From UHGV virus genome UHGV-0253090: DNA of 30,200 nt; one strand, written 5' to 3'. The stretch is from a virus. The first letter of the stretch is position 1. Each line of letters begins with the position of its first letter. The position numbers and the translations under genes are program-made. The notes beneath the pieces are model-generated. The model saw nothing but the letters and a program-made list of their open reading frames with translations. It was not told where the DNA came from and made no database searches. Shown piece by piece: positions 454-23,245 of the stretch.

Positions 454-1449
454 TTATGGACGCATTATGGACATTCCTGACACCGGGTTAAGAGTCACAG
501 CATCTTGTAAGAAATCCGGTGCAAAGTGTGCGTAGGTCATAGTTTGCTGAATGTTAGAATGACCCAGGATGCGCTGCAATGTGATTATGTTACCTCCATT
601 CATTATAAAATGTGTGGCAAATGTATGCCTCAAAACATGCACTGCCTGTCCGTCAGGTAAATCGGGTTTTACTTCCCTGAGAGCGTTGCGCACTTTGTAG
701 TAACTGGCATTAAAAAGCCTGCCAGAATTTTTGGTTTTGATCCGTTTAATCAAGTCCTGCGAAACGGGAATTGTCCTGCGCTTTCCGTTTTTAGTTTTCA
801 TAAACGTAACCATCTGGTTAATGATGTGTTCAGCTTTTAAATTAGACACTTCACTCCAGCGTCCACCAGTAGAAAGGCAGACCAGAGTCGCATTTAATTC
901 ATCACCATCAAGCATGGATAACAGTCGCGTAATCTCTTCACTGGACAAAAAAGCCATTTCTGTAACAGCTTCACGTAACCGCTTAACCTCACGGAACGGG
1001 TTGTGAGAGTGGTATTCACCGGCGTCAATTAACTTGGTGAACATCCCGCTCATTATTGCCAGATGCCGATTTACGCTGGCTGGTTTTAGACCATCGTTCA
1101 TCATTACAACGCGATAATCAGTTATCGTTTTCTTTGTTAGCTGGTCAGCTCTGGACACTCCCATTTCTGCAAATTTGGCGATTATTGTCGTTAAACGCCC
1201 CCGTTCAATATCTCCACGCTCATGTGATTTTCCGTGATATATCCACCATCTGCCTAACAACTCTGTAAGAGTTCGGCGGTCGGCTGGTTTCTCCAGCCAC
1301 TCTTTGTTGTGGTAGTTAACCAGTACATGACGTTCGAATGCTTGAGCTTCACCTTTAGTTTTAAATTTCCGCCTGATACGTTTTCCATCTGCACCCTGCG
1401 GTCTGACGTCCACTTCATAACGACCATCATCGAGCTTTTTAATAGACAT
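454..1449 (-). CDS. int: P2-type tyrosine integrase
   Basis: 331-aa ORF starting MSIKKLDDGRYEV, with C-terminal HxLRHTFAT...LGH...Y catalytic region typical of P2/186 integrases. GGAGGG SD 4 nt upstream of the ATG. Lies next to the host junction. Confidence 0.92.
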   Translation of the reverse strand: MSIKKLDDGRYEVDVRPQGADGKRIRRKFKTKGEAQAFERHVLVNYHNKEWLEKPADRRTLTELLGRWWIYHGKSHERGDIERGRLTTIIAKFAEMGVSRADQLTKKTITDYRVVMMNDGLKPASVNRHLAIMSGMFTKLIDAGEYHSHNPFREVKRLREAVTEMAFLSSEEITRLLSMLDGDELNATLVCLSTGGRWSEVSNLKAEHIINQMVTFMKTKNGKRRTIPVSQDLIKRIKTKNSGRLFNASYYKVRNALREVKPDLPDGQAVHVLRHTFATHFIMNGGNIITLQRILGHSNIQQTMTYAHFAPDFLQDAVTLNPVSGMSIMRP

Positions 1450-1542
1450 AAAGCCCTCCGATGACGCTGTTTACTTCTACTACTTGAAAATTAATGCAAT
1501 TTTCTTTCGTACATTTACTACACACATATGCTGAATAAATCG

Positions 1543-1842
1543 TCAGCCAGTTTTCTGGTCTGAGTGGTGCAAGGTTGTTGAGTCTTGCCCAATGTGTGCG
1601 AGAGCCGGGGCTATTTGTCCAGCTGCTGGATCTGTTTCATCAAACATGAACCAGTCACGATACTTGCGAAAGCGTGGATGCTTAAACAGCTTCATACCTG
1701 CTTCCATAGGCATTTTTGATTTTCCTGATTCATATCCATGATATGTGTAGTAATTAATTCCAATTAATTCAGCAAGTTCCTTAGTTTTAAGGCGTTCGGA
1801 TTCACGGATGAGCTTTAGTTTTTCACTTTGTTCACTTGACAT
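1543..1842 (-). CDS. C: Immunity repressor C (P2 C-like, HTH)
   Basis: From the internal ATG the product is 99 aa (MSSEQSEK...GQIAPALAHIGQDSTTLHHSDQKTG), co-linear with P2 C (99 aa, MSNTISEK...GQIAPALAHFGQ...SGQKTG). The ORF track extends to 1860 using a TTG start. Confidence 0.85.
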   Translation of the reverse strand: MSSEQSEKLKLIRESERLKTKELAELIGINYYTYHGYESGKSKMPMEAGMKLFKHPRFRKYRDWFMFDETDPAAGQIAPALAHIGQDSTTLHHSDQKTG

Positions 1843-1935
1843 AATTTTGCTAATCTCCAATTATATTGCTACTTGGCAATTTGTGATTCACTCAAAAAGG
1901 CTCTAGAAGGCTCCAGTTGGTGAATCGCAAATCTT
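1843..1935. promoter_or_regulatory. Lysis/lysogeny switch region between divergent C and cox (Pc/Pe-type promoters and operators)
   Basis: Intergenic region between divergent repressor and cox genes. Contains a 13-bp inverted repeat (atttgtgattcac 1879-1891 / gtgaatcgcaaat 1920-1932), tandem 10-bp direct repeats (aaggctctag / aaggctccag, about 1897-1916) and a perfect TATAAT on the minus strand (1859-1864). Confidence 0.55.
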
Positions 1936-2307
1936 ATGGAGGATAGCAAAGTGACGACAAATGTAGAAATTTCTTGTCCAACTAGCGATGAGGCAAGTTT
2001 CGAAAATGAAGCCAAACGTAAAAGCATTCAGATTTCAGAGCGCCCATCTGATTTGCTGTCGAAAGAAGGTTTTGCTCTTTACATCGGTAAGACACCACGC
2101 GCGGTGGCTGAAATGGCTAAAGCAGGAAAGCTGCCAGCCTTCTACATGACAGACCCATTAAAACCAAGAGGGAAAGCTGAATTATGGATTAATCGCCGTG
2201 AGTGGGACAAGTACGCAGCCCAACTGGTTGATGAAGCTCCGACAGAATGGCATGACTGGAAAAATCGCATTAGTTACAGCAAATCAAGACATGGCCGTGC
2301 GGCTTAA
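1936..2307 (+). CDS. cox: Cox-like excisionase / transcriptional regulator; start uncertain (ATG 1936 or GTG 1951 after GGAGGA)
   Basis: Core YIGKTPRAVAEMAKAGKLPAFYMTDP aligns with the P2 Cox HTH region (LIGKSTGAVRRMIDKGKLPVIDMTDP). Divergent from C as in P2. The ORF is about 30 aa longer at the N-terminus than P2 Cox. Confidence 0.75.
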   Translation: MEDSKVTTNVEISCPTSDEASFENEAKRKSIQISERPSDLLSKEGFALYIGKTPRAVAEMAKAGKLPAFYMTDPLKPRGKAELWINRREWDKYAAQLVDEAPTEWHDWKNRISYSKSRHGRAA

Positions 2308-2317
2308 GGTGGAAAGG

Positions 2318-2488
2318 ATGAACGAGCCTCGTTGTATTGCTCAGTTATTGCGTAACGAAAGCCCCAGGGCGATTGACTTCACCATCACCCACGGAAAGGG
2401 TCGCAAGGGAATCATTATCCGCACCAAAAAACAGAGTCCGTTAAAAAAGGCTCTGACCTTTCTGAAAAGCCGGAGGGTCTGGAAATGA
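2318..2488 (+). CDS. Small hypothetical early protein (position of P2 orf78); start chosen at ATG 2318 behind a GGAAAGG SD
   Basis: ORF track frame 2198-2488. The internal ATG at 2318 has a good SD. Basic, 56 aa. Positioned between cox and B. Confidence 0.45.
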   Translation: MNEPRCIAQLLRNESPRAIDFTITHGKGRKGIIIRTKKQSPLKKALTFLKSRRVWK

Positions 2489-2985
2489 CAGTGATGACGC
2501 TCAATCTCGTCGAAAAACAGCCAGCAGCTATGCGCCGGATAATTGGTAAGCATCTTGCCGTCCCTCGCTGGCAGGAGACATGTGATTATTATAATCAGAT
2601 GATGGAGCGCGAACGGCTAACAGTTTGCTTTCATGCGCAGTTAAAACAACGTCACGCAACGATGCGTTTTGAAGAAATGAACGACGTCGAACGTGAACGG
2701 CTGGTTTGTGCAATTGATGAACTGCGTGGGGCATTCTCAAAACGCCGTCAGGTTGGCGCAAGTGAGTATGCATATATTAGTTTTTTAACAGTCAGTCAGC
2801 GTCGTACTTTATTTATGCATGCCGGATTGACTGAAAAAGAATTCAATCAGCCATACTGGCGAATTAATGAAGAGTCATGTTACTGGCGTGATGCTTTATT
2901 CCGTGCATTACGTGAACTATTCAGTCTGTTTGAGTATGCACCGACAATTCTGACGTCGGTAAAACCAGAGCAATATTTGCATTAA
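2485..2985 (+). CDS. B: Replication protein B (P2 gpB-like)
   Basis: 166 aa, same length as P2 gpB. GGAGGG SD 7 nt upstream. ATGA overlap with the upstream ORF. Position between cox and A. Confidence 0.85.
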   Translation: MTVMTLNLVEKQPAAMRRIIGKHLAVPRWQETCDYYNQMMERERLTVCFHAQLKQRHATMRFEEMNDVERERLVCAIDELRGAFSKRRQVGASEYAYISFLTVSQRRTLFMHAGLTEKEFNQPYWRINEESCYWRDALFRALRELFSLFEYAPTILTSVKPEQYLH

Positions 2986-3048
2986 ATAATTAACCAGAGT
3001 TTTTAACGCACTTAATCGTGCGGGGCTTCTTTTTGCCTGGAGAAAGTC

Positions 3049-3273
3049 ATGCATACAGTTTCTGAAAATCAGTGCGGTAAATACGCATTACTGCTGCAAC
3101 AGGCCAGAACCGAAGCACAGGCCGACGCTGCGACGCGCTTTTCTTCTCATCTTGACGCCATGATTCGCCATATCACAAAGGCGGAGTTATCCCGCGTGGA
3201 GATAGTCGAGCTGCTCAGTCAGGAGTCGGAAAAATTTCACAATATCGGATTGTCTCGCGGGGAGGTGCTTTGA
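3049..3273 (+). CDS. Hypothetical early protein (P2 orf80-like)
   Basis: 74-aa ORF with GGAGAAAG SD. First of four translationally coupled small ORFs upstream of A, as in P2. Confidence 0.7.
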
Positions 3274-3572
3274 TGTCCTGTTCTCATTCAGTTGTATTAC
3301 TGAATAACGCCTTAAAAATCGCCGTTATGGAAAATGGTGATTTGTCTCTTATTCAACTTTGTCTTGATAAAGAAAAACGCGACATAACTGAATCTGTTAT
3401 CGCGATTTATCAGAATGAATTAAACCTCCTGTCTGATGTGGTCAATTTACTTGTTAAACGCGCTGTGTTCTACAAGCAAATTTCCTCAGTGGATGAACTG
3501 ACAAAATTAACGACAGAACTCGCCAGTTATTGCGCTGATGTATCCAGGAAACTTAACGATAAAAGGAGCTGA
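3270..3572 (+). CDS. Hypothetical early protein (P2 orf81-like)
   Basis: 100-aa ORF, ATGA overlap with the previous ORF. Confidence 0.7.
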
Positions 3573-3574
3573 TA

Positions 3575-3799
3575 ATGCCGGACAACGTAGATTTTATTCA
3601 GGAACAACAGGCTGAATTACTGGAGCGCCAGATTAACGCGGCAAGGGTAAAACATTGCGGTGCTTCTGCGCTGGTTTGCGAAGAGTGTGATGCGCCAATA
3701 TCTGCTGCCCGTCGTGCGGCTTATCCGTCAGCCACGCGTTGTGTTTCCTGTCAGTCAGTCTTTGAAGCAAAAAACAAACATTACCGGAGAACGGCATGA
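3575..3799 (+). CDS. TraR/DksA-family C4 zinc-finger protein (P2 orf82-like)
   Basis: 74 aa with CGASALVCEECDAPI...RCVSC (Cx2C...Cx2C) in a DksA/TraR-like arrangement. AAGGAG SD. Confidence 0.8.
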   Translation: MPDNVDFIQEQQAELLERQINAARVKHCGASALVCEECDAPISAARRAAYPSATRCVSCQSVFEAKNKHYRRTA

Positions 3800-4071
3800 G
3801 TATTCGTATTGAAATTGGCGAACGTTATGTCGTTACCAGTGACAGCTTTCAGTTTATTCTCCACGAGAAAAAGAGAGCGGAAAGCGGTAAAAACGCCGGT
3901 CAGGAATGGCTGTCGGTGGTTGGTTATTACCCGAAATTAAGCCAGCTCGTTTCCGGCCTGATGCATCACGATATTCTGACCGGAAGCGCAAAATCTTTTG
4001 CCGATTTAAACGCGCAGGTTGAGCAACTCAGCAAGCGTTGTTCAGAGGCTTTTGGCTCATATGGCCGTTAA
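3796..4071 (+). CDS. Hypothetical early protein (P2 orf83-like)
   Basis: 91-aa ORF, ATGA overlap with the zinc-finger ORF. Ends overlapping the A start. Confidence 0.7.
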   Translation: MSIRIEIGERYVVTSDSFQFILHEKKRAESGKNAGQEWLSVVGYYPKLSQLVSGLMHHDILTGSAKSFADLNAQVEQLSKRCSEAFGSYGR

Positions 4072-6334
4072 AGCCTCCGGGCGTTTTGTCCCTCCGTCAG
4101 CATTTGCCGCAGGTACCGGTAAGACGTTTACCGGTGCTTATGCATGGAACGCGCCACGCGAGGCTGTCGGGCGCGAAAGACCCCTTACACGTGACGAGAT
4201 GCGTCAGGTGCAAGGTGTTTTATCCACGATTAACCGTCTGCCTTACTTTTTGCGCTCGCTGTTTACTTCACGCTATGACTACATCCGGCGCAATAAAAGC
4301 CCGGTGCACGGGTTTTATTTCCTCACATCCACTTTTCAGCGTCGTTTATGGCCGCGCATTGAGCGTGTGAATCAGCGCCATGAAATGAACACCGACGCGT
4401 CGTTGCTGTTTCTGGCAGAGCGCGACCAGTATGCGCGCCTGCCGGGGATGAATGACAAGGAGCTGAAAAAGTTTGCCGCCCGAATCTCATCGCAGCTTTT
4501 CATGATGTATGAGGAACTCTGCGATGCCTGGGTGGATGCGCATGGCGAAAAAGAATCGCTGTTTACGGATGAGGCGCAGGCTCACCTGTATGGTCATGTT
4601 GCTGGCGCTGCACGTGCTTTCAATATTTCCCCGCTTTACTGGAGAAAATACCGTAAAGGGCAGATGACCACGAGGCAGGCATATTCTGCCATTGCCCGCC
4701 TGTTTAACGATGAGTGGTGGATTAGTCAGCTTAAAGGCCAGCGTATGCGCTGGCATGAGGCGTTACTGATTGCTGTCGGGGAGGTGAATAAAGACCGTTC
4801 TCCTTATGCCAGTAAACATGCCATTCGTGATGTGCGTGCACGCCGCCAGGCAAATCTGGAATTTCTTAAATCGTGTGACCTTGAAAACAGGGAAACCGGC
4901 GAGCGCATCGACCTTATCAGTAAGGTGATGAGCAGTATTTCTAATCCTGAAATTCGCCGGATGGAGCTGATGAACACCATTGCCGGTATTGAGCGTTACG
5001 CCGCCGCAGAGGGTGATGTGGGGATGTTTATCACGCTTACCGCGCCGTCAAAGTATCACCCGACACGTCAGGTCGGAAAAGGCGAAAGTAAAACCGTCCA
5101 GCTAAATCACGGCTGGAACGATGAGGCATTTAATCCAAAGGATGCGCAGCGTTATCTCTGCCATATCTGGAGCCTGATGCGCACGGCATTCAAGGATAAT
5201 GATTTACAGGTCTACGGTTTGCGTGTCGTCGAGCCACACCACGACGGAACGCCGCACTGGCATATGATGCTTTTTTGTAATCCACGCCAGCGTAACCAGA
5301 TTATCGAAATCATGCGTCGCTATGCGCTCAAAGAGGATGGCGACGAAAGAGGAGCCGCGCGAAACCGTTTTCAGGCAAAACACCTTAACCAGGGCGGTGC
5401 TGCGGGGTATATCGCGAAATACATCTCAAAAAACATCGATGGCTATGCACTGGATGGTCAGCTCGATAACGATACCGGCAGACCGCTGAAAGACACTGCT
5501 GCGGCTGTTACCGCATGGGCGTCAACGTGGCGCATCCCACAATTTAAAACGGTTGGTCTGCCGACAATGGGGGCTTACCGTGAACTACGCAAATTGCCTC
5601 GCGGCGTCAGCATTGCTGATGAGTTTGACGAACGCGTTGAGGCTGCACGTGCCGCCGCAGACAGTGGTGATTTTGCGTTGTATATCAGCGCGCAGGGTGG
5701 GGCAAATGTTCCGCGTGATTGTCAGACTGTCAGGGTTGCCCGTAGTCCGTCGGATGACGTTAACGAGTACGAGGAAGAAGTCGAGAGAGTGGTCGGCATT
5801 TACGCGCCGCATCTCGGCGCGCGTCATATTCATATCACCAGAACGACGGACTGGCGCATTGTGCCGAAAGTTCCGGTCGTTGAGCCTTTGACTTTAAAAA
5901 GCGGCATCGCCGCGCCTCGGAGTCCTGTCAATAACTGTGGAAAGCTCACCGGTGGTGATACTTCGTTACCGGCTCCCACGCCTTCTGAGCACGCCGCAGC
6001 AGTGCTTAATCTGGTTGATGACGGTGTTATCGAATGGAATGACCCGGAGGTCGTGAGGGCGCTCAGAAGCGCATTAAAACACGGCCTGAGAAGACCAAAC
6101 CGTCAGCAAAGAAACGGAAGCCCGTTAAAACCGCATGAAATAGCGCCATCGGCCAGACTTACCCGGTCGGAACGAATGCAAATTACCCGTATCCGCGTTG
6201 ACCTTGCTCAGAACGGTATCAGGCCGCAGCGATGGGAGCTTGAGGCGCTGGCGCGTGGGGCAACCGTAAATTATGACGGGAAAAAATTCACGTATCCGAT
6301 TGCTGAAGAGTGGTCGGGATTTTCCTCAAACTAA
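4061..6334 (+). CDS. A: Replication initiation endonuclease A (rolling-circle Rep, P2 gpA-like)
   Basis: About 757 aa from ATG 4061 (MAVKASGRFVPP...), matching my recall of the P2 gpA N-terminus and length (761 aa). Contains a HxH-like PHHDGTPHWHMML and the conserved GYIAKYISK region of rolling-circle initiators. The ORF track start at 4019 is a TTG. Confidence 0.9.
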   Translation: MAVKASGRFVPPSAFAAGTGKTFTGAYAWNAPREAVGRERPLTRDEMRQVQGVLSTINRLPYFLRSLFTSRYDYIRRNKSPVHGFYFLTSTFQRRLWPRIERVNQRHEMNTDASLLFLAERDQYARLPGMNDKELKKFAARISSQLFMMYEELCDAWVDAHGEKESLFTDEAQAHLYGHVAGAARAFNISPLYWRKYRKGQMTTRQAYSAIARLFNDEWWISQLKGQRMRWHEALLIAVGEVNKDRSPYASKHAIRDVRARRQANLEFLKSCDLENRETGERIDLISKVMSSISNPEIRRMELMNTIAGIERYAAAEGDVGMFITLTAPSKYHPTRQVGKGESKTVQLNHGWNDEAFNPKDAQRYLCHIWSLMRTAFKDNDLQVYGLRVVEPHHDGTPHWHMMLFCNPRQRNQIIEIMRRYALKEDGDERGAARNRFQAKHLNQGGAAGYIAKYISKNIDGYALDGQLDNDTGRPLKDTAAAVTAWASTWRIPQFKTVGLPTMGAYRELRKLPRGVSIADEFDERVEAARAAADSGDFALYISAQGGANVPRDCQTVRVARSPSDDVNEYEEEVERVVGIYAPHLGARHIHITRTTDWRIVPKVPVVEPLTLKSGIAAPRSPVNNCGKLTGGDTSLPAPTPSEHAAAVLNLVDDGVIEWNDPEVVRALRSALKHGLRRPNRQQRNGSPLKPHEIAPSARLTRSERMQITRIRVDLAQNGIRPQRWELEALARGATVNYDGKKFTYPIAEEWSGFSSN

Positions 6335-6506
6335 TAATGATGTTTGACAAAGAGATGTTGATGAGACTAAAAATTTTATTTGTCTGTATAACCATTCGGT
6401 TAGAGTACAATAGTTCCGAGTGATAGGAATACAAATAATGACTAAGTTTTCAACATGCGATTGTTATGGGTTGAATTAAAGGTAAATAACTATGTTAAAT
6501 AATATA

Positions 6507-6539
6507 GGGCAAGAGGGTGTTCTTGCCCTTTGTTTATTT
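6507..6539. terminator. Bidirectional rho-independent terminator between A and the SIR2 gene
   Basis: Perfect 8-bp stem GGGCAAGA (6507-6514) / TCTTGCCC (6521-6528) with a 6-nt loop, T-rich on both sides. Sits immediately 3' of the minus-strand SIR2 gene stop (6538-6540). Confidence 0.6.
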
Positions 6540-9132
6540 AAGCGGCGATTTCAATGTTGCTTTTATATTTTAAGAGGGCGTTTTTGGGAACTGCTGGCCA
6601 GGCTGAGTATCTATAATAGTTCATATAATCTTTCTCTATCAGTGTTTTTAGCTGTTTGTTAGCTTGAACTTCATCACCAAGTAAAAAGAATGCACACATG
6701 GCCGTAGCCCCTTTTGAATTGTTATGTGCTAAAACTGAATTTATCTCATTCTTTTTAATGTCTTGCCCTTCTTTTTTCTTGGCAACTTCTCTATTGATTA
6801 TTAAAACATCTTTTTCCCTGTAATCTTTAATTTTTTCAAGGTTTTCATTAGCGATTTTAATTGTTTCTTTATAGTTTCCTGCAAGAAGATTGGTATAAGA
6901 TTTTCCTAAGATATAATCACTAAACCCGTAACCTTTTTCATAAGCTTCATCAAGAAGAACTATCGCTTTATCATAATCGCCGTTTAAAGATGCAATATCA
7001 GATTTTAATTTTAAAATGGTGATTTCTGATTTGTTTCTTGGCAGGCTATCAATAAACTCCTCTGCCAATTTGATGTTGTTTTTATCAATTAGTAATATGT
7101 CTACAATACTGTTTGTATGATTATTTTTCCACGGGCAGTTCATGGCTTCTTTGACTAATTCAATACCAGCTTTGATGTCCCTGTTGCAGCCTATCTCATA
7201 TCGAGCTTTAAATATAATGAAAGGAGCAATTCTTGCAATGTCGCTCTCTTCTTCATATTTATCAATAAAGCCTTTCATCAGGTTGGGAGTGTTTTCATCG
7301 AAGTCTGTTTCAAATAAAGATAGATGCAGTTGTGTTAAATATTTTAATATGTTTCTTTTTTTATTTTTTGATGATGTTTTGTAAGCGTTGGATAATGTAT
7401 CTATGCATAATAATGTATCTTCTTTCTTTTGCAATGTGCAGGTGAAATCAGTATATAACGACAAATATGTATCGTGAGTAGGGTTGACCTCTTTTATTTT
7501 GTCAAGCAGTTCTTGTATTAATTTATTACAATCTTTCTTATCATGGCTTGATTGATGTTTTGTCTTTATTGCGTCATATTTTATTCTCCATGCAAAATTA
7601 TCCAGATCACTGCTTTGGAGTAAGCTTTTATCAATTAAATCATGTATTTCATCAAAGGTTATTAATTCTTCATCATTATTTTCTAGATGTAGAATAGCAA
7701 TTCTGCTTAAATGATTCTTAAGATTTATGCTATATGGGAATTTTTCAAGCAATCCCTTAAGGTAATGTATTTTTGCCTTTAGATCTGTGAATATGTTTGC
7801 CCTTGAAAGGGCGTAATTTATATTAAATTCATCAAGAGCTATAAGATTATCACTAATTTCTAATGCTGACTTTGTGTCTTTTTGTTCTTCTTTTATTTCA
7901 ATTAGCCTACGCAGATATTTAGACTTTATATTGTCACTATCAGCGTTATTGATTAATTCATTCAGTTTTGACTCTGCGTTTAAATAATTTTTATTTCTAA
8001 TGAGGTTGTCAATGTATAACAAATTCTTAAAATCTTCTTCGGGGATCTTTTGATCGTCTAAATCACTTTGGGATAGCTCGTTTATTAATGACGATATGTC
8101 ATGTGTTAGAGTGTGTTTTTTTAATTTTGAGAGGTCAGATTTGATAATGCCATTTTTAGATAAGTTGTACTCATCTGTTATAAAGTTTTGGATCATCATC
8201 TCTCTTTTTGTGGATTTTTGATTCCCTCCAAAAGAGAGTGCGCAGCCTAATTCTAGGGCTAGTTCTGCCATCAATTCATCAAAACCTTCTATTTCTACCC
8301 AATAAACTTTATCTTGACCTAGAAGCCTAATAAGTTCTGGTGGGATGGAGTCATTTTTTCTAACGCACCAGTATACTCCATTTCTTAGGTAATCGTCCTG
8401 TTTTAATAAATGTTTTAAAACATCCATGATAGAGCTGTCATTGCCAGCATAACCAACAAAAATAATCCCGTATTCTTTAGTGAATTCAGTTAGTTTTTCA
8501 CGAGTGTTACCTTCTAATGACTCGGTTTCTTTTAAAGAGCTTTTTATGCTATCAAATAAATAATCACCATGTAATTTTATTATTTTTGGCCTTGAAGAAG
8601 TAATTGAGACGCCTTTAATTGATGAATCATGTGCACATAATAATGGTCTGTCAGAAGAAAATTGATAAAATGCTTCATTTATTAAATCGTCAAAATTTGT
8701 TGTGAAGACAGTATCAAAAAACTTTGATTCAAATAGTTCAACGAGATAAGCATATCCAATTGAAGGTAATTTTTTGTCTACTTGAAGCTCAACAAATCTT
8801 CTGCGTTGAGATGGAAGATCAAATTTCTTTTCAAAAAGAGATGAGTATTCATTGTTTGGGTCGTACCAGACTGGATGGTTTTTGGATAGCCATTTTTTAG
8901 CTTCTTCGGCATCGACATATTCTTGATTGGATAGTCTTGTGTATATCTCTTCTCTCCATTTCGCTACTAACTCTTGACCAGTTTTTATTCCAGATGTAAC
9001 GGATGCGCCAGCACCAAGAAAAAGTGAATAGTTAGGTGATGTACCTGATTTGATTTTTATATAATCAGCTAAATCTTTAACGGTTCTTTTTTTGGCAACC
9101 AGTTGTTCCTTGGTAGTATCACGATCAGACAT
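6538..9132 (-). CDS. SIR2-domain protein (predicted NAD+ hydrolase) with long alpha-helical, TPR-like C-terminal region; candidate single-gene anti-phage defence protein
   Basis: 864 aa. N-terminal about 300 aa carry SIR2_2-type motifs LFLGAGASVTSG (Rossmann GAGxS), TTNFDDL (catalytic N) and KLHGD (catalytic H), then IFVGYAGND. The remainder is K/N/D/E/L-rich helical repeat sequence with no Walker A motif. Strong GGAGGG SD. Markedly AT-rich compared with flanking phage genes. Sits in the P2 tin/old slot between A and cos. Confidence 0.8.
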   Translation of the reverse strand: MSDRDTTKEQLVAKKRTVKDLADYIKIKSGTSPNYSLFLGAGASVTSGIKTGQELVAKWREEIYTRLSNQEYVDAEEAKKWLSKNHPVWYDPNNEYSSLFEKKFDLPSQRRRFVELQVDKKLPSIGYAYLVELFESKFFDTVFTTNFDDLINEAFYQFSSDRPLLCAHDSSIKGVSITSSRPKIIKLHGDYLFDSIKSSLKETESLEGNTREKLTEFTKEYGIIFVGYAGNDSSIMDVLKHLLKQDDYLRNGVYWCVRKNDSIPPELIRLLGQDKVYWVEIEGFDELMAELALELGCALSFGGNQKSTKREMMIQNFITDEYNLSKNGIIKSDLSKLKKHTLTHDISSLINELSQSDLDDQKIPEEDFKNLLYIDNLIRNKNYLNAESKLNELINNADSDNIKSKYLRRLIEIKEEQKDTKSALEISDNLIALDEFNINYALSRANIFTDLKAKIHYLKGLLEKFPYSINLKNHLSRIAILHLENNDEELITFDEIHDLIDKSLLQSSDLDNFAWRIKYDAIKTKHQSSHDKKDCNKLIQELLDKIKEVNPTHDTYLSLYTDFTCTLQKKEDTLLCIDTLSNAYKTSSKNKKRNILKYLTQLHLSLFETDFDENTPNLMKGFIDKYEEESDIARIAPFIIFKARYEIGCNRDIKAGIELVKEAMNCPWKNNHTNSIVDILLIDKNNIKLAEEFIDSLPRNKSEITILKLKSDIASLNGDYDKAIVLLDEAYEKGYGFSDYILGKSYTNLLAGNYKETIKIANENLEKIKDYREKDVLIINREVAKKKEGQDIKKNEINSVLAHNNSKGATAMCAFFLLGDEVQANKQLKTLIEKDYMNYYRYSAWPAVPKNALLKYKSNIEIAA

Positions 9133-9444
9133 TTTCCCTCCATAAATTATGTGTGAGAAGTGAGAATAATCCTAGGTGTGGTTATTTTTACATGAAATTC
9201 AATGGGTTTTCGTTTTTCTTACATGCGTTTTGTGACTGAGATCAAGCTATGAGGGAGGAATGTTCTTTTATTGTTCGCTAGAGGCTAATTGGCTAATAAG
9301 CTTTTACTAATCGTTTATGATGTACCATAGCGTTGAATGATTTTGCATGCATTTGTCAGATGTTTACTGATGTTGTTATGTCAGAGCTGGTGCGCTTTAG
9401 GTTATTTCATGCAACTGCATTAAAACCACCACATGAAGCGGGCG

Positions 9445-9463
9445 GGCGAGGCGGGGAAAGCAC
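9445..9463. other. cos site (19-nt cohesive end region, P2-type)
   Basis: GGCGAGGCGGGGAAAGCAC matches my recall of the P2 cohesive end, and lies where cos is expected, next to the portal gene Q. Confidence 0.6.
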
Positions 9464-9605
9464 TGCGCGCTGGCGGTGGTGCTGATTTTATTTTTTCAGC
9501 GTCTGAGCGCGTCGTGATGGCGTTTAGATTGTTCGCCGGGGCGTTTGTGTGTCTGCGGGATGTTTTGTGCGGTGGTGAGCGTGTGAGGGCGTGATGGCGG
9601 GTTGT

Positions 9606-9626
9606 AAAAAGCCGCCCGTAGGCGGC
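9606..9626 (-). terminator. Rho-independent terminator downstream of Q
   Basis: Stem GCCGCC (9611-9616) / GGCGGC (9621-9626) with loop CGTA. On the minus-strand transcript it is followed by UUUUU (plus-strand aaaaa 9606-9610), a few nt after the Q stop. Confidence 0.6.
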
Positions 9627-9631
9627 GATGT

Positions 9632-10666
9632 TCAGCCGTTGTCAGTGTCCAGTGAGTAGTTTTTAAAGCGGATGACCTCCTGACCGAGCCAGCCGTTTAT
9701 CTCGCGGATCCTGTCCTGTAGCGGGATAAGCTCATTGCGGACAAAGACCTTTGCCACTTTCTCAATATCACCCAGCGACCCGACGTTCTCCGGCTTGCCG
9801 CCCATCAACTGAAAGGGGATGCGGTGCGCGTCCAGCAGGTCAGCGGCGCTGGCTTTTTTGATATTAAAAAAATCGTCCTTCGTTGCGACCTCACTGAGCG
9901 GGATAATTTTAATGCCGTCGGCTTTCCCATGTGGGGCATAGAGGAACAGATTTTTAAAGTTGTTGCGGCCTTTCGACTTAACCATGTTTTCGCGAAGCAT
10001 TTCGATATCGTTGCGATCCTGCACGGCATCGGTGACGTACATGATGTATCCGGCATGAGCGCCGTTTTCGTAATACTTGCGGCGGAACAGCGTGGCCGAC
10101 TCATTCAGCCAGGCAGAGTTAAGGGCGCTGAGATATTCCGGCAGGCCGTACAGCTCCTGATTAATATCCGGCTCCAGCAGGTGAAACACGGAGCCGGGAG
10201 CGAAGGCTGTCGGCTCGTTGAAGGACGGCACCCACCAGTAAACATCCTCCTCCACGCCACGGCGGGTATATTTTGCCGGTGAGGTTTCCAGTCTGATGAC
10301 CTTACCGGTGGTGCTGTAACGCTTTTCCAGAAACGCATTACCGAACACCAGAAAATCCAGCACAAAGCGGCTGAAATCCTGCTGGGAAAGCCACGGGTGC
10401 GGGATAAATGTCGAGGCCAGAATATTGCGTTTGACGTAAATCGGCGAGCTGTGATGCACGGCAGCACGCAGGCTTTTCGCCAGACCGGTAAAGCTGACCG
10501 GCGGCTCATACCATCTGCCGTTACTGATGCACTCGACGTAATCCAGAATGTCACGGCGGTCGAGTACCGGCACCGGCTCACCAAAGGTGAATGCCTCCAT
10601 TTTCGGGGCGCTGGCGGTCATTTTTTTTGCCGCAGGTTGCGGTGTTTTCCCTTTTTTCTTGCTCAT
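9632..10666 (-). CDS. Q: Portal protein (P2 gpQ-like)
   Basis: 344 aa, same length as P2 gpQ. Adjacent to cos and divergent from the O operon. ATGA overlap with P. Confidence 0.9.
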   Translation of the reverse strand: MSKKKGKTPQPAAKKMTASAPKMEAFTFGEPVPVLDRRDILDYVECISNGRWYEPPVSFTGLAKSLRAAVHHSSPIYVKRNILASTFIPHPWLSQQDFSRFVLDFLVFGNAFLEKRYSTTGKVIRLETSPAKYTRRGVEEDVYWWVPSFNEPTAFAPGSVFHLLEPDINQELYGLPEYLSALNSAWLNESATLFRRKYYENGAHAGYIMYVTDAVQDRNDIEMLRENMVKSKGRNNFKNLFLYAPHGKADGIKIIPLSEVATKDDFFNIKKASAADLLDAHRIPFQLMGGKPENVGSLGDIEKVAKVFVRNELIPLQDRIREINGWLGQEVIRFKNYSLDTDNG

Positions 10667-12438
10667 CAGTAAAACTCCAGAATGGTGGATGTCAGCGGGG
10701 TGCTGATACCGGCGGTGAGTGGCTCATTTAACAGGGCGTGCATGGTCGCCCAGGCGAGGTCGGCGTGGCTGGCTTCCTCGCTGCGGCTGGCCTCATAGGT
10801 GGCGCTGCGTCCGCTGCTGGTCATGGTCTTGCGGATAGCCATAAACGAGCTGGTGATGTCGGTGGCGCTGACGTCATATTCCAGACAGCCACGGCGGATA
10901 ACGTCTTTTGCCTTGAGCACCATTGCAGTTTTCATTTCCGGCGTGTAGCGGATATCGCGCGCGGCGGGATAGAACGAGCGCACGAGCTGGAACACGCCGA
11001 CACCGAGGCCGGTGGCATCAATACCGATGTATTCGACGTTATATTTTTCGGTGAGTTTGCGGATGGATTCAGCCTGGGTGGCAAAGTCCATGCCTTTCCA
11101 CTGGTGACGCTCAAGTATTCTGAATTTGCCACCGGCCACCACCGGCGGTGCCAGCACCACGCATCCGGCGCTGTCGCCACGGTGTGACGGGTCGTAACCA
11201 ATCCATACCGGGCGGGAGCCGAACGGATTCGCGGCAAACGGCGCATAGTCTTCCCATTCTTCCAGCGTGTCGACCATGCAGCGTTGCAGCTCCTCGAACG
11301 GGAACACCGACGCCTTGTCGTCAACAAATTCACACATGAACAGGTTTTTAAAATCGTCGGCGCTGTTTTCACGTTTGAGCTGCTCAATGTCGAACAGCGT
11401 GCAGCCGCCTTTCAGGGCATCCTCAATGGTGACAATCTGCCGCCACTGGCCGTCCGCACAGAGAAGCCCACCGGCAAGGGCGTTATGACTGACGTCGATT
11501 TCCACACGTTCGGCGGCGCTGGCGCGTCCCCGGTTAAACAGTTCACCGGACCAGAACGGGTAGGCGTCGTGCGCCAGCGTGGACGGGGTGGAGAAATAGG
11601 TCGAGCGCAGGTGACTCTGTGAGGCCATACCTGATGCCACCTTACGGAGCACCTGAAAATTCGGGATCCAGAAAATCTCGTCGACGTACAGGTCGCCGTT
11701 ATGGCTCTGCGCGGTGTTGGAGTTGGTGCCGAGAAAAATCAGTTTTGCGCCGTTATTGCCGAGGACAATTGGGTCACCGGTCAGGTCAACGTCAACCAGC
11801 CGGGCAAAGGCGATGATGTATTCGCGGAACACATACGCCTGCGTTTTACTGGCCGACAGAAAAATCTGGTTATGACCGGTTTTCAGGGCGCGCAGCAGCG
11901 CCTCGCGGGAAAAATAAAACGTCGCGCCAATCTGGCGGGATTTCAGGATATCGCGGATGCGGTGCTCAAGCCCGGCGCGATACCAGTGCAACTGATAGTC
12001 GAAAGACTGCTCAAAGAAAATCTGCTCCAGCTTTTCGATGGCTTCGTCACTGAAAAAATTCTTTTTCGGTTTGCGACGCCCGCCTTTGTTGCGGTTAGCG
12101 ACGTTCGGATTAAGGTCTGCCTCGTTGCCGGTCTGACTGTAGCGGTTGACCCGCGCCAGTCGTTCAATCTGGCGTCCCAGCAGGTCAATTTCCTTGAAGT
12201 CACCGCCGGTTTTCTGCGGTTTGATGATGAGCTGGGTCAGCCGCGCTTCCAGACTCATTTCGACACGGCTGATGGGGGCAACGCTGTCCCAGCCGTCGCG
12301 CTGTTTCCAGCTCTGCACCGTCGGGCGTTTCATCTGCAACATGGCGGCAATCTGCGGCACGGAAAATCCCTGCCAGTACAGCAGCGCCGCCTGACGACGC
12401 GGGTCGTGTAAAAGAGTGGTGTCTGTGGTGATGGTCAT
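10666..12438 (-). CDS. P: Terminase large (ATPase) subunit (P2 gpP-like)
   Basis: 590 aa from the internal ATG (MTITTDTTLL...), matching P2 gpP length. The ORF track start 10 codons upstream is probably spurious. Confidence 0.9.
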   Translation of the reverse strand: MTITTDTTLLHDPRRQAALLYWQGFSVPQIAAMLQMKRPTVQSWKQRDGWDSVAPISRVEMSLEARLTQLIIKPQKTGGDFKEIDLLGRQIERLARVNRYSQTGNEADLNPNVANRNKGGRRKPKKNFFSDEAIEKLEQIFFEQSFDYQLHWYRAGLEHRIRDILKSRQIGATFYFSREALLRALKTGHNQIFLSASKTQAYVFREYIIAFARLVDVDLTGDPIVLGNNGAKLIFLGTNSNTAQSHNGDLYVDEIFWIPNFQVLRKVASGMASQSHLRSTYFSTPSTLAHDAYPFWSGELFNRGRASAAERVEIDVSHNALAGGLLCADGQWRQIVTIEDALKGGCTLFDIEQLKRENSADDFKNLFMCEFVDDKASVFPFEELQRCMVDTLEEWEDYAPFAANPFGSRPVWIGYDPSHRGDSAGCVVLAPPVVAGGKFRILERHQWKGMDFATQAESIRKLTEKYNVEYIGIDATGLGVGVFQLVRSFYPAARDIRYTPEMKTAMVLKAKDVIRRGCLEYDVSATDITSSFMAIRKTMTSSGRSATYEASRSEEASHADLAWATMHALLNEPLTAGISTPLTSTILEFY

Positions 12439-12611
12439 GAATACCTCGCCGTGATGAATACACGGCAAGGCTACTGAGTCGCGCCCTGCGATTCGCTAAT
12501 GTGCTGTTGTGTCAGTGATAAGCCATCCGGGACTGATGGCGGAGGATGCGCATCGTCGGGAAACTGATGCCGACATGTGACTCCTCTAATCACTATTCAG
12601 GACTCCTGACA
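12439..12611. promoter_or_regulatory. Divergent late promoter region (expected Ogr-dependent promoters for P-Q and O-N-M-L operons)
   Basis: Position between divergently transcribed P and O, as in P2. No promoter motif could be confidently identified by eye. Confidence 0.35.
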
Positions 12612-13466
12612 ATGGCAAAAAAAGTCTCAAAATTCTTTCGTATCGGCGTTGAGGGTGACACCTGTGACGGGCGTGTCATCAGTGCGCAGGATATTCAGGA
12701 AATGGCGGAAACCTTTGACCCGCGAGTCTATGGTTGCCGCATTAACCTGGAACATCTGCGCGGCATCCTGCCTGACGGTATTTTTAAGCGTTATGGCGAT
12801 GTGGCCGAACTGAAGGCCGAAAAGATTGACGATGATTCGGCGCTGAAAGGCAAATGGGCGCTGTTTGCGAAAATCACCCCGACCGATGACCTTATCGCGA
12901 TGAACAAGGCCGCGCAGAAGGTCTATACCTCAATGGAAATTCAGCCGAACTTTGCCAATACCGGCAAATGTTATCTGGTGGGTCTGGCCGTCACCGATGA
13001 CCCGGCAAGCCTCGGCACGGAATACCTGGAATTCTGCCGCACGGCAAAACACAACCCCCTGAACCGCTTCAAATTAAGCCCTGAAAACCTGATTTCAGTG
13101 GCAACGCCCGTTGAGCTGGAATTTGAAGACCTGCCTGAAACCGTGTTCACCGCTCTGACCGAAAAGGTGAAATCCATTTTTGGCCGCAAACAGGCCAGCG
13201 ATGACGCCCGTCTGAATGACGTGCATGAAGCGGTGACCGCTGTCGCTGAACATGTGCAGGAAAAACTGAGCGCCACTGAGCAGCGCCTCGCTGAGATGGA
13301 AACTGCCTTTTCCGCTCTTAAGCAGGAGGTGACTGACAGGGCGGATGAAACCAGTCAGGCATTCAGCCGCCTGAAAAACAGTCTCGACAACACCGAAAGT
13401 CTGACCCAGCAGCGCCGCAGCAAGGCCACCGGCGGTGGCGGTGACGCCCTGATGACGAACTGCTGA
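12612..13466 (+). CDS. O: Capsid scaffolding protein (P2 gpO-like)
   Basis: 284 aa from MAKKVSKFFRIGVEGDT (P2 gpO is 284 aa). AGGA SD. The ORF track start at 12546 is an upstream alternative. Confidence 0.9.
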   Translation: MAKKVSKFFRIGVEGDTCDGRVISAQDIQEMAETFDPRVYGCRINLEHLRGILPDGIFKRYGDVAELKAEKIDDDSALKGKWALFAKITPTDDLIAMNKAAQKVYTSMEIQPNFANTGKCYLVGLAVTDDPASLGTEYLEFCRTAKHNPLNRFKLSPENLISVATPVELEFEDLPETVFTALTEKVKSIFGRKQASDDARLNDVHEAVTAVAEHVQEKLSATEQRLAEMETAFSALKQEVTDRADETSQAFSRLKNSLDNTESLTQQRRSKATGGGGDALMTNC

Positions 13467-13524
13467 CCGGCGTCAGCCAGTCCGGGAAAACCTTCACGAT
13501 TAACCCTTAATTTCAGGAAAAACT

Positions 13525-14598
13525 ATGCGCCAGGAAACCCGCTTTAAATTTAATGCCTACCTGTCCCGTGTTGCCGAACTGAACGGCATCGACGCCGGTG
13601 ATGTGTCGAAAAAATTCACCGTTGAACCGTCGGTCACCCAGACCCTGATGAACACCATGCAGGAGTCCTCTGACTTTCTGACCCGCATCAACATTGTGCC
13701 GGTCAGCGAAATGAAAGGGGAAAAAATTGGTATTGGTGTCACCGGCTCCATCGCCAGCACCACCGACACCGCCGGTGGCACCGAGCGTCAGCCGAAGGAC
13801 TTCTCGAAGCTGGCGTCAAACAAGTACGAATGCGACCAGATTAACTTCGATTTTTATATCCGCTACAAAACGCTGGACCTGTGGGCGCGTTATCAGGATT
13901 TCCAGCTCCGTGTCCGTAACGCCATTATCAAACGCCAGTCCCTTGATTTAATCATGGCCGGTTTTAACGGCGTGAGGCGTGCCGAAACCTCTGACCGCAG
14001 CAGTAACCCGATGCTGCAGGATGTGGCGGTCGGCTGGCTGCAGAAATACCGCAATGAAGCCCCGGCGCGCGTGATGAGCAAGGTTACTGACGAGGAAGGT
14101 CACACGACCTCTGAGGTCATCCGCGTGGGTAAGGGCGGTGATTATGCCAGCCTCGATGCACTGGTGATGGATGCGACCAACAACCTGATTGAACCGTGGT
14201 ATCAGGAAGACCCGGACCTTGTGGTGATTGTGGGACGTCAGCTACTGGCGGACAAGTATTTCCCCATCGTTAACAAGGAGCAGGATAACAGCGAAATGCT
14301 GGCCGCTGACGTCATCATCAGCCAGAAACGCATCGGTAACCTGCCGGCGGTACGCGTCCCGTACTTCCCGGCGGATGCGATGCTCATCACGAAGCTGGAA
14401 AACCTGTCCATCTACTACATGGATGACAGCCATCGCCGCGTGATTGAGGAAAACCCGAAACTCGACCGCGTGGAGAACTACGAGTCAATGAACATTGATT
14501 ACGTGGTGGAAGACTACGCCGCCGGTTGTCTGGTGGAAAAAATTAAGGTCGGTGATTTCTCCACACCGGCTAAAGCGACCGCAGAGCCGGGAGCGTAA
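13525..14598 (+). CDS. N: Major capsid protein (P2 gpN-like)
   Basis: 357 aa, same length as P2 gpN. Position after O. Confidence 0.9.
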   Translation: MRQETRFKFNAYLSRVAELNGIDAGDVSKKFTVEPSVTQTLMNTMQESSDFLTRINIVPVSEMKGEKIGIGVTGSIASTTDTAGGTERQPKDFSKLASNKYECDQINFDFYIRYKTLDLWARYQDFQLRVRNAIIKRQSLDLIMAGFNGVRRAETSDRSSNPMLQDVAVGWLQKYRNEAPARVMSKVTDEEGHTTSEVIRVGKGGDYASLDALVMDATNNLIEPWYQEDPDLVVIVGRQLLADKYFPIVNKEQDNSEMLAADVIISQKRIGNLPAVRVPYFPADAMLITKLENLSIYYMDDSHRRVIEENPKLDRVENYESMNIDYVVEDYAAGCLVEKIKVGDFSTPAKATAEPGA

Positions 14599-14601
14599 CC
14601 G

Positions 14602-15345
14602 ATGACGAGTCCCGCACAGCGCCACATGATGCGGGTCTCGGCAGCGATGACCGCGCAGCGGGAAGCCGCCCCGCTGCGACATGCAACTGTCTATGAGCAG
14701 ATGCTGGTCAAGCTGGCCGCAGACCAGCGCACACTGAAAGCGATTTATTCAAAAGAGCTGAAGGCCGCGAAAAAACGCGAACTGCTGCCGTTCTGGTTGC
14801 CGTGGGTGAACGGCGTGCTGGAGCAGGGCAAAGGTGCACAGGATGACATTCTGATGACGGTCATGCTGTGGCGTCTGGATACCGGCGATATTGCCGGTGC
14901 GCTGGAGATTGCCCGTTATGCCCTGAAGTACGGTCTGACCATGCCGGGTAAACACCGCCGCACCCCGCCGTACATGTTCACCGAGGAGGTGGCGCTCGCG
15001 GCCATGCGTGCTCACGCTGCCGGTGAGTCTGTGGATACCCGCCTGCTGACGGAGACCCTTGAACTGACCGCCACGGCTGACATGCCTGATGAAGTGCGCG
15101 CAAAGCTGCACAAAATCACCGGTCTGTTTCTGCGTGACGGTGGTGATGCCGCCGGTGCGCTGGCTCACCTGCAACGTGCGACACAGCTCGACTGTCAGGC
15201 AGGCGTCAAAAAAGAGATTGAACGACTGGAGCGGGAGCTGAAACCGAAGCCGGAGCCGCAGCCCAAAGCGGCCACCCGTACCCCGCGTAAGACCCGGAGC
15301 GTGACACCGGCAAAACGTGGACGCCCGAAAAAGAAAGCCAGTTAA
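14602..15345 (+). CDS. M: Terminase small / endonuclease subunit (P2 gpM-like)
   Basis: 247 aa, same length as P2 gpM. Basic C-terminal tail. Confidence 0.88.
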   Translation: MTSPAQRHMMRVSAAMTAQREAAPLRHATVYEQMLVKLAADQRTLKAIYSKELKAAKKRELLPFWLPWVNGVLEQGKGAQDDILMTVMLWRLDTGDIAGALEIARYALKYGLTMPGKHRRTPPYMFTEEVALAAMRAHAAGESVDTRLLTETLELTATADMPDEVRAKLHKITGLFLRDGGDAAGALAHLQRATQLDCQAGVKKEIERLERELKPKPEPQPKAATRTPRKTRSVTPAKRGRPKKKAS

Positions 15346-20523: not shown

Positions 20524-21704
20524 CAGTGAAATACTACGCCATTCTGACTAATCAGGGCGCAGCACGGCTGGCTAACGCGACGATGCTCGGCAGTAAGCTG
20601 AATCTGACGCAAATGGCCGTTGGTGATGCGAATGGTGTCTTGCCGACACCAGACCCGGCACAGACAAAACTGATTAACCAGAAACGCATCGCGCCGCTGA
20701 ATCTTCTGAGTGTTGACCCGAACAACCAGAGCCAGATTATTGCGGAGCAAATCATCCCTGAGAACGAGGGCGGATTCTGGATCCGTGAGATTGGGCTTTA
20801 TGATGATGAAGGCGTACTCATTGCGGTGGCAAACTGCCCGGAAACGTACAAACCGCAGTTGCAGGAAGGAAGCGGTCGTACCCAGACTATCCGCATGATT
20901 CTGGTTGTCTCGAATACCGAAGCCATCACGCTGAAAATCGACCCGTCGGTGGTACTGGCGACCCGTAAATACGTGGATGATGAAGTCCTGGAATTAAGGC
21001 TGTATGTGGATGACCAGATGAGAAACCACATTGCCGCACAGGATCCTCATACCCAGTATGCGCAGAAACATAATCCGACATTTACCGGAGAACCAAAAGC
21101 GCCGACGCCTGCCGCAGGAAATAACACCACGCGGATTGCGACCACTGCGTTTGTTCAGGCCGCTATTACCGCTCTGATTAACGGTGCGCCAGCCACGCTG
21201 GACACACTGAAAGAAATTGCCGCAGCCATTAACAATGACCCGAAATTCAGTACCACCATTAACAATGCGCTGTCAGGTAAGCAGCCACTGGATGAGACGC
21301 TGACTCATTTGAGTGGAAAGGATGTAGCTGGTCTTCTCGCATACCTTGGTTTGGGAGAAGCGGCAAAACGGAATGTGGGCACAGGAGATAATCAGATACC
21401 GGATATGGGAGCATTCGCTTCTGGTTCGGGATGGTTCAGGCTACCAGGTGGATATATTGTTCAGTTTGGCACTTTTTCAGGAAACACGACCCGCTTTATC
21501 AGTGGACACTTCCCTATACCATTCCCTAATCGGCCGATGGTTTCAGTCAGTGTTATGTCTGATGCCGTTCAGTCAGACCCGTCGAATCCTGCCCCGCAGG
21601 TTTTGTCTGTAAATTTTGAACATATCAGTAATTCAGCGTGGCGTATGGCAACCAGTGATATCTCATATCAATACAGATTCAGTTATATTTCGATAGGACG
21701 GTAG
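20520..21704 (+). CDS. H: Tail fibre protein: constant N-terminal part plus variable C-terminal tip (current orientation of the invertible segment)
   Basis: 394 aa. The N-terminal region resembles Mu S/P1 S-type tail-fibre constant domains. The recombination site at 21334-21359 lies inside the reading frame, at the LGLGE codons. Confidence 0.8.
21334..21359. repeat. 26-bp DNA-invertase crossover site (left, within the tail-fibre gene)
   Basis: TTCTCGCATACCTTGGTTTGGGAGAA, an imperfect palindrome of the hix/gix/cix type. Shares TTGGTTTGGGAGAA with the reverse complement of the site at 23165-23190. Confidence 0.7.
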
Positions 21705-21706
21705 AA

Positions 21707-23190: not shown

Positions 23191-23245
23191 TGCAGAGATA
23201 GCGGCTAACTGGCATCATCTCCGGTTTTTATTCAGGGGATCCGTC

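Follow-up and report, generated by a model that had tools for sequence, protein, structure and literature searches.

The stretch analyzed here, UHGV virus genome UHGV-0253090, is 30,200 nt long (hereafter, the window) and corresponds to a P2-like Escherichia coli prophage with an integrase gene (454-1449), a repressor-like helix-turn-helix gene, and capsid, lysis, and tail genes. Between the replication endonuclease gene gpA and the portal gene gpQ lies a gene for an 864-amino acid (aa) protein that joins a SIR2 head, predicted to be an NADase, to a tail of tetratricopeptide repeats (TPR); it is referred to below as SIR2-TPR (Table 1). This gene is the sole one in an AT-rich island with a GC content of 30-33%, compared with about 55% in the flanks, and no credible small open reading frames (ORFs) were found beside it in the cassette. 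The GC content of the gene itself is 32%, and that of its third codon positions is 27%. A hairpin (6506-6529) directly after the stop codon separates it from the convergent gpA. A promoter scan of the cassette returned no more sites than shuffled sequence did; thus, no promoter is claimed. The window had earlier been interpreted from its letters alone, without database searches (the sequence-only reading), and the 864-aa ORF at 6538-9132 reported there proved to be real and intact: it is present in the ORF listing, the chance of 864 open codons at this base composition is about 4e-32, and the ratio of nonsynonymous to synonymous substitution rates (dN/dS) between E. coli alleles is 0.04-0.16, in keeping with purifying selection. 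The exact 864-aa sequence was also found in NCBI/UniRef.

Table 1. Features of the SIR2-TPR gene and its flanks (positions in the window; residues of the SIR2-TPR protein).
Feature	Position	Strand	Evidence
gpA replication endonuclease, left hotspot border	4019-6334	+	Pfam Phage_GPA E = 2.5e-123; RefSeq "replication endonuclease"
Bidirectional hairpin terminator	6506-6529	.	Terminator scan and sequence read; 9-10 bp stem, T-run on both strands
Complete SIR2-TPR coding sequence, stop included	6538-9132	-	ORF listing; ATG start, 864 aa
TPR-type alpha-solenoid, residues 365-857, ~25 helices, predicted sensor/regulatory tail	6562-8040	-	
Linker, residues 296-364, with long helix 328-354 and conserved DISxLIxEL (345-353)	8041-8247	-	AlphaFold2 and alignment
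SIR2_2 (SIRim-type) Rossmann domain, residues ~30-295, predicted NADase effector head	8248-9045	-	
KLHGD, residues 186-190, predicted catalytic His188	8563-8577	-	Aligned to KIHGD of 8jkz_A
TTNFDD, residues 144-149, predicted catalytic Asn146	8686-8703	-	Same as TTNFDD in SPARSA SIR2 chain 8jkz_A
GAGAS nucleotide-binding loop, residues 40-44	9001-9015	-	Sequence read; aligned to GAGTS of SPARSA SIR2
Shine-Dalgarno GGAGGG	9136-9141	-	3 nt 5' of ATG; read from sequence
Portal gpQ, right hotspot border	9632-10666	-	Pfam Phage_portal; RefSeq "phage portal protein"
Terminase gpP, after gpQ	10666-12468		RefSeq "terminase ATPase subunit"

In P2-like phages, the gpA-gpQ slot forms the cos-proximal hotspot, which holds old and tin in P2 itself and has been reported to house a large and changing anti-phage repertoire (Rousset et al., 2022; Vassallo et al., 2022). 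A search of complete E. coli genomes matched the flanks in 2172 of 5426, and SIR2-TPR was the cargo in only 19 of these, with a DNA identity of 77-99.7%. RefSeq labels for the E. coli copies (77-99.6% identical) never went beyond "SIR2 family protein," with "replication endonuclease" on one side and "phage portal protein" on the other. No other circumstantial evidence for a defense role is as strong as this location, which the sequence-only reading had overlooked.

The N-terminal part of the protein was assigned to the Pfam family SIR2_2 (PF13289) with E = 4e-15 and 56.6 bits against a cut-off of 24.5, the match covering residues 141-261. The motifs start at residues 37 (LFLGAGASVTSG), 144 (TTNFDD), and 186 (KLHGD), and the residues G40, G42, S44, T144-D149, K186, H188, G189, and D190 were invariant in an alignment of 39 homologs with identities down to 38%. 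Thus, an N-terminal SIR2_2 signature with the catalytic motifs in the correct order, as had been proposed, was confirmed. The PADLOC model Aga_SIR2 (PDLC02419) matched residues 33-292 with E = 2e-60, a phmmer search of the PDB retrieved the SPARSA structure 8jkz with E = 1e-23, and the top Foldseek matches of the structural model were SPARSA SIR2 chains (8jkz/8in8), with about 24% identity over approximately 315 columns. By every measure, therefore, the closest head was that of SPARSA (GsSir2/Ago of Geobacter sulfurreducens; 8jkz, 8in8, 8y80), in which the TTNFDD and HGD motifs are identical. Other PADLOC models scored more weakly: Dsr2 with E = 7e-4 over about 50 residues, ThsA with E = 3e-5 over the SIR2 core only, and SIR2(-HerA) with E = 0.03. 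The Dsr1 model (PDLC04166, 1227 positions) matched neither the full protein at E ≤ 1 nor either half at E ≤ 10, and NCBIfam has no model for the family. Judged by these sequence comparisons, the head is grouped with the SIR2 modules of short prokaryotic Argonaute (pAgo) systems, and not with those of DSR1, DSR2, ThsA, HerA-SIR2, or Avs5. The sequence-only reading, which had left SIR2-APAZ proteins uncompared, had looked for the nearest kin among DSR-type proteins, and this part of it is contradicted by the difference between the Aga_SIR2 and Dsr scores.

A SIR2 domain might also modify proteins, as an ADP-ribosyltransferase or deacylase, with the TPR tail recruiting a host or phage substrate; the gene would then serve the physiology of the prophage and its host or a targeted, non-abortive exclusion. 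We consider such a role unlikely, given that the zinc-binding Cys module of deacylase sirtuins was absent from the head when its sequence was read, that the gene occupies a slot dominated by defense cargo, and that the nearest characterized SIR2_2 relatives are reported as NAD+-depleting defense effectors. Among these relatives, GsSir2/Ago has been reported to deplete NAD+ upon infection.

Outside the head, SIR2-TPR differed from SPARSA. The latter contains an APAZ region, whereas the match of SIR2-TPR to the Aga profiles ended at approximately positions 280-297 of 558-1010, and the alignments with SPARSA chains in the PDB spanned just chain residues 18-300 of about 585. In addition, SPARSA has an adjacent short Argonaute, whereas SIR2-TPR is a single gene between gpA and the portal gene with none next to it. 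The replacement of APAZ/pAgo by a fused TPR solenoid implies that the cue would be a protein or peptide rather than a nucleic acid recognized by means of a guide. Since the closest SIR2 relatives normally form heterodimers with a short pAgo, it could be argued that SIR2-TPR needs a partner encoded elsewhere, such as a host Argonaute-like sensor, or that it is a decaying, non-functional passenger of the hotspot. This explanation is very unlikely in either form. The Aga profiles were left unmatched in their APAZ part (coverage ending at about 280-297 of 558), and a pAgo-sized gene was adjacent in no context examined. The E. coli alleles examined were all intact, with exactly 864 codons and dN/dS values well below 1, and members of the family keep their full length in taxa from Enterobacterales to Vibrio, Shewanella, and Pseudoalteromonas.

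In the AlphaFold2 model, the SIR2 head is followed by the linker helix and then directly by the TPR region, where about 25 regular helices were predicted over residues 365-857 with a predicted local distance difference test score (pLDDT) mostly above 90. A profile of the family matched consensus TPR proteins in the PDB in four stretches (E = 2e-8). In the linker, pLDDT dipped at residues 300-310 and 350-360; its conservation was intermediate (31-80%), and D345, S347, I350, and E352 were invariant in the 39-homolog alignment. The C-terminal part is rich in K, N, D, E, I, and L (K 12%, N 9%). It had been described as low-complexity helical repeats with TPR-like segments; its K/N/D/E-rich composition and TPR type hold, but the high pLDDT does not fit a disordered low-complexity region. 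Searches of the BFVD viral structure library returned generic giant-virus TPR proteins alone, none of them at E ≤ 1e-3. In the linker and tail (window positions 6562-8100), three stretches were invariant or almost so across the family, in contrast to the otherwise fast-evolving tail, namely DISxLIxEL (345-353), INRExAKK (778-786), and the C-terminal WPxxP (845-849). From their conservation, these may be oligomerization surfaces or the points at which tail and head are coupled.

Alternatively, the TPR tail might bind a short peptide or a small ligand, as the RRNPP regulators Rap, NprR, and PlcR do, so that the NADase would be switched by a communication or stress signal and not by a phage structural protein. 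AimR is also an RRNPP-type receptor. We regard this explanation as quite unlikely for SIR2-TPR.

The composition of the protein and of its neighborhood also separated SIR2-TPR from the multidomain and multigene SIR2 systems, as the sequence-only reading had stated. The Walker A pattern [AG]xxxxGK[ST] was found nowhere in the 864 residues, and no NTPase domain was matched in Pfam or PADLOC, in line with the absence of a Walker A motif noted before. By contrast, Avs5 (SIR2-STAND) and the TIR/SIR2-NLR proteins of the P4 hotspot carry a STAND NTPase, which sets SIR2-TPR apart from them. Thoeris ThsA has a C-terminal SLOG or Macro domain and a ThsB (TIR) partner, whereas SIR2-TPR showed neither, in Pfam searches or among its neighbors; the ThsA hidden Markov model (HMM) covered no more than the SIR2 core. 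SIR2-HerA (Nezha) requires an adjacent HerA (DUF87) ATPase, unlike the single-gene cassette described here, and the combination of SIR2_2 and DUF87 is listed as a separate system of the P2 hotspot (Rousset et al., 2022).

The comparison with the single-protein DSR systems was less simple. In DSR2 of Bacillus subtilis, an N-terminal SIR2 NADase is followed by a C-terminal alpha-solenoid, and binding of the phage tail tube leads to NAD+ depletion and abortive infection. SIR2-TPR shares this layout of SIR2 and solenoid in one chain, which makes DSR2 a functional analogy; however, sequence kinship was limited to the SIR2 core, where the Dsr2 HMM matched. The solenoid also differed. Foldseek aligned the two proteins end to end with E of about 1e-8, yet TM was about 0.2, with no rigid-body superposition. 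Dsr1 (EcDsr1, WP_029488749.1), in which SIR2 is joined to a TPR sensor without an NTPase and whose trigger is the major capsid protein, is the closest to SIR2-TPR in concept. Nevertheless, the two heads belong to different SIR2 subgroups. The sensor of Dsr1 and Avs7 is bilobed, comprises about 960 aa (residues 561-1523 of SeAvs7), and is common to STAND NTPases and more than 20 effectors, whereas the tail of SIR2-TPR is about 500 aa long and was found with this head only; the comparison is one of model and published description rather than of the EcDsr1 sequence. The proteins also differ in size: DSR2 has about 1000-1200 aa, and the PADLOC profiles of Dsr1 and Dsr2 comprise 1227 and 1222 positions against 864 aa, so that the earlier remark that SIR2-TPR is shorter than DSR1/DSR2 was correct.

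These data bear on the possibility that SIR2-TPR is a divergent member of DSR1/DSR2, in which case mechanism and trigger (major capsid or tail tube protein) could be transferred from them. The same gross layout of an N-terminal SIR2 and C-terminal helical repeats in one polypeptide, the end-to-end Foldseek alignment with DSR2 chains, and the TPR sensor of Dsr1 are in favor of such membership, to which we nonetheless give very little credence: on HMM, PDB-profile, fold, and size evidence, it was rejected. The DSR-type resemblance put forward in the sequence-only reading thus lies in the layout alone; the head is of the Argonaute type.

The distribution of the family was explored by searches with the whole protein and with the tail. 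Full-length homologs of 860-890 aa were found in many Enterobacterales and in Aeromonas, Vibrio, Shewanella, Psychromonas, and Pseudoalteromonas, and their annotation was nothing more specific than "SIR2 family protein." With a tail profile built from 11 diverse sequences (residues 300-864), a search of 1.84 billion representative proteins gave no more than 404 matches at E ≤ 1e-3. Among the 150 top matches listed, essentially all full-length proteins were 840-930 aa long with the tail at approximately residues 300-860; the shorter matches scanned were mostly SIR2 proteins truncated at the N-terminus. No swap of the effector on the tail and no STAND-sized proteins were seen among these best 150 of the 404 matches. 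Thus, within the reach of the sequence search, the TPR tail is always paired with a head of the SIR2-TPR type.

The two parts of the protein evolved differently. In the 39-sequence alignment, identity in the head was 64-89%, and in the tail it fell to 25-70%; invariant columns were dense up to about residue 350 and rare beyond it. This pattern of a conserved head and a variable tail fits the expectation for an effector plus a sensor. Among the E. coli alleles, dN/dS ranged from 0.04 to 0.07 in the head and from 0.11 to 0.16 in the tail. Both parts are therefore kept by selection, and the tail is changing about three times faster.

In IMG/VR, a relative was encoded at 41 viral loci. At 14 of them the gene was located between the portal/terminase genes and gpA, including P2-like phages whose gpA was just 36% identical, and a further 6-7 full-length copies were found on viral contigs without a detectable P2-type gpA or portal. 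In the chromosomes of Shewanella, Aeromonas, and Vibrio, the gene was solitary, and its neighbors were not shared. Across the contexts from these three genera and E. coli, a search for a conserved partner gene found none. One IMG/VR contig (IMGVR_UViG_2565956724_000008, 47,980 bp) carried two copies of the gene, one toward each end and inverted relative to each other (ranges 636-15227, reversed, and 32754-47345); their flanks were equal in identity. This duplication is probably an assembly artifact or the result of two adjacent inverted P2-like prophages.

The same head was also found with other tails. At about 20 IMG/VR loci, the pAgo-type head (43-61% identity) was part of stand-alone proteins of 630-680 aa (loci L033-L051; for example, L033:6004-7926, L046:5947-7929, and L051:1622-3514), whose tails of about 330-380 aa were unrelated to the TPR tail and had no Pfam match. 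On these approximately 20 viral contigs, no Argonaute-sized gene was consistently adjacent. By sequence, these proteins may constitute a sibling family of single-gene SIR2 candidates, perhaps related to PDC-S65, a computational candidate of PADLOC. PDC-S65 shares its head with SIR2-TPR (E = 6e-26), but only over profile positions 32-341 of 592; like it, the siblings of 555-680 aa are stand-alone prophage genes, and their tails of about 270-380 aa could not be aligned with the TPR tail. In the Vibrio phage 10N.286.45.B12_PE001 (PQ189330.1), a P2/186-like prophage, a 612-aa protein with this head (5977-7815; BLASTP E = 1e-83) is encoded between a cI-like repressor/PH-domain gene and the integrase gene, which places this effector head in a further variable locus of the P2 family. 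Another example was the pleolipovirus Haloferax virus Halfgib1 (MW344766.1), where a gene at 2062-3729, adjoining the integrase gene, encodes a 555-aa protein annotated merely as "tetratricopeptide repeat protein." It combines a pAgo-type SIR2 head (33% identity; Aga_SIR2 E = 1.5e-52, PDC-S65 E = 2e-40) with a short TPR tail of about 270 aa, which indicates that the design of SIR2 plus TPR exists on an archaeal virus too.

Across viral loci, a variety of tails occurs on a shared head; the head is thus the constant module and the sensor-like tail the variable part. One may go further and propose a third independent lineage of single-chain defense sirtuins, in which a SPARSA-type head was freed from APAZ/pAgo and fused to a dedicated TPR receptor. 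It would be part of a "one head, many sensors" family on bacterial and archaeal phages, with at least three unrelated tails (the TPR tail of about 500 aa, that of about 330-380 aa, and the haloarchaeal TPR tail of about 270 aa) and a trigger other than tail tube or capsid. We offer this proposal tentatively and hold it to be doubtful as a whole; if true, such a family would link nucleic-acid-guided and protein-pattern immunity.

Taken together, we consider it probable that SIR2-TPR is a self-contained, prophage-encoded NADase of abortive infection that is triggered through its TPR tail. The proposed mechanism is modeled on the precedents of SPARSA (NAD+ depletion), DSR2 (tail tube), and Dsr1 (capsid). 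The SIR2 head would be an NAD+ glycohydrolase that is kept inactive in uninfected lysogens, and the TPR solenoid would stand in for the APAZ/Argonaute sensor as a receptor for a cue of the superinfecting phage, most likely a protein or peptide. Binding of the cue would lift the inhibition, probably via a change of the oligomeric state, as in characterized defense SIR2 proteins; the plausibility of such a switch comes from the structural neighbors, many of which were solved as filaments or higher-order oligomers, and from SPARSA, Avs5, KomC, and FAM118B, for which activation involves oligomerization or filament formation. NAD+ would then be hydrolyzed, phage replication would no longer be supported, and the lysogen population and the resident prophage would be protected. 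The idea that a phage structural protein is what the tail senses is guesswork drawn from the parallel with DSR2 and Dsr1. By the features compared, SIR2-TPR falls outside DSR1, DSR2, and SPARSA, yet it most likely works like them; it is most likely a variant of the known one-protein sirtuin defenses and not a new kind of system.

Several observations weigh against this interpretation. The dN/dS of the tail indicates purifying selection overall and does not support positive selection across the domain. Unlike the Avs7/Dsr1 sensor, the tail never occurred with another effector, and it could therefore be a regulatory or oligomerization scaffold specific to this head rather than a receptor. No PADLOC defense model matched the tail, so that no known sensor model fits it. 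In several bacteria, the gene was located among housekeeping genes and not in recognizable defense islands. Rousset et al. (2022) do not include the sequence in the table of systems that they cloned and assayed. Finally, DSR1 in B. subtilis was reported to deplete NAD+ only transiently, without collapse of the culture, which means that abortive infection is not guaranteed for SIR2-TPR.

Searching the published tables with SIR2-TPR peptides showed that the gene had been recorded before: system 60 of the P2 hotspot in Table S5B of Rousset et al. (2022), "SIR2_2," corresponds to SIR2-TPR in the form of a close allele at the same locus. The entry gives 68 occurrences, comments "Likely a NADase," and contains no analysis of the tail or family and no experiment. 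Thus, a brief mention of the gene and of its probable enzymology dates from 2022, but it did not extend to the affiliation of the head with the Argonaute type, the dedicated TPR tail, the extent of the family, or the relatives with swappable tails. The suggestion in the sequence-only reading of a distinct or undescribed variant is accordingly right with respect to DSR1/DSR2, from which the protein is distinct, but the protein itself was already on record. Within the literature searched, no paper described a SIR2-TPR defense protein of this type, and nothing was found on PDC-S65. Two other published SIR2 proteins, one from Rousset et al. (2022) and one from Vassallo et al. (2022), were considered. 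The solo SIR2 that these authors cloned as pFR88 (system 39 in Table S1B of Rousset et al., 2022; P4-satellite hotspot) corresponds to the PADLOC candidate PDC-S25 (E = 4e-85) and has a ThsA/LmuA-like core, which places it in a SIR2 lineage distinct from that of the P2-hotspot SIR2-TPR. It was rejected as a control for DSR1, being PDC-S25 and not Dsr1, although its weak match proved that the Dsr1 model is present in PADLOC. The "Sir2 homologue" of Vassallo et al. (2022) was also rejected as a SIR2-TPR protein; it appears to be the two-gene system PD-T7-2, whose second protein is HerA-like.

If confirmed, SIR2-TPR would add a compact, single-gene, NTPase-free sensor-effector of 864 aa to the NAD+-depleting defenses and would demonstrate that the SIR2 head of short Argonaute systems can be rewired to a receptor made of protein repeats. 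It bears on the movement of effector modules between nucleic-acid-guided and pattern-recognition immunity, although it opens no new category: SIR2 with a repeat sensor, abortive infection, and cargo of the P2 hotspot are all established concepts. The small size of the family, its fixed architecture, the confident model, and the clean contrast between conserved head and variable tail make it a tractable case in which to look for a new phage trigger and to study the gating of a SIR2 active site by a TPR tail. The gene is a cheap candidate for cloning from a well-known hotspot, and the PADLOC models and NCBIfam currently miss it.

Two minor observations concern other parts of the window. The gpA ORF starts at TTG and encodes 771 aa, whereas its RefSeq homolog in strain GB089 has 2274 nt (757 aa); given this shorter annotation, the true start of gpA is probably about 14 codons downstream. 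Further along, a 27-nt inverted repeat (21334-21360 and 23164-23190; 81% complementary, 1803 nt apart) encloses a tail-fiber assembly gene on the plus strand (21707-22147), together with another assembly gene (22119-22712) and a C-terminal fragment of a tail-collar/fiber gene (22712-23218), both of which are on the opposite strand. A gene for a serine invertase (Resolvase and HTH_7; 23246-23839) adjoins this segment. By its sequence, the region 21334-23839 appears to be an invertible tail-fiber segment, that is, a host-range switch of the Gin/Cin type.

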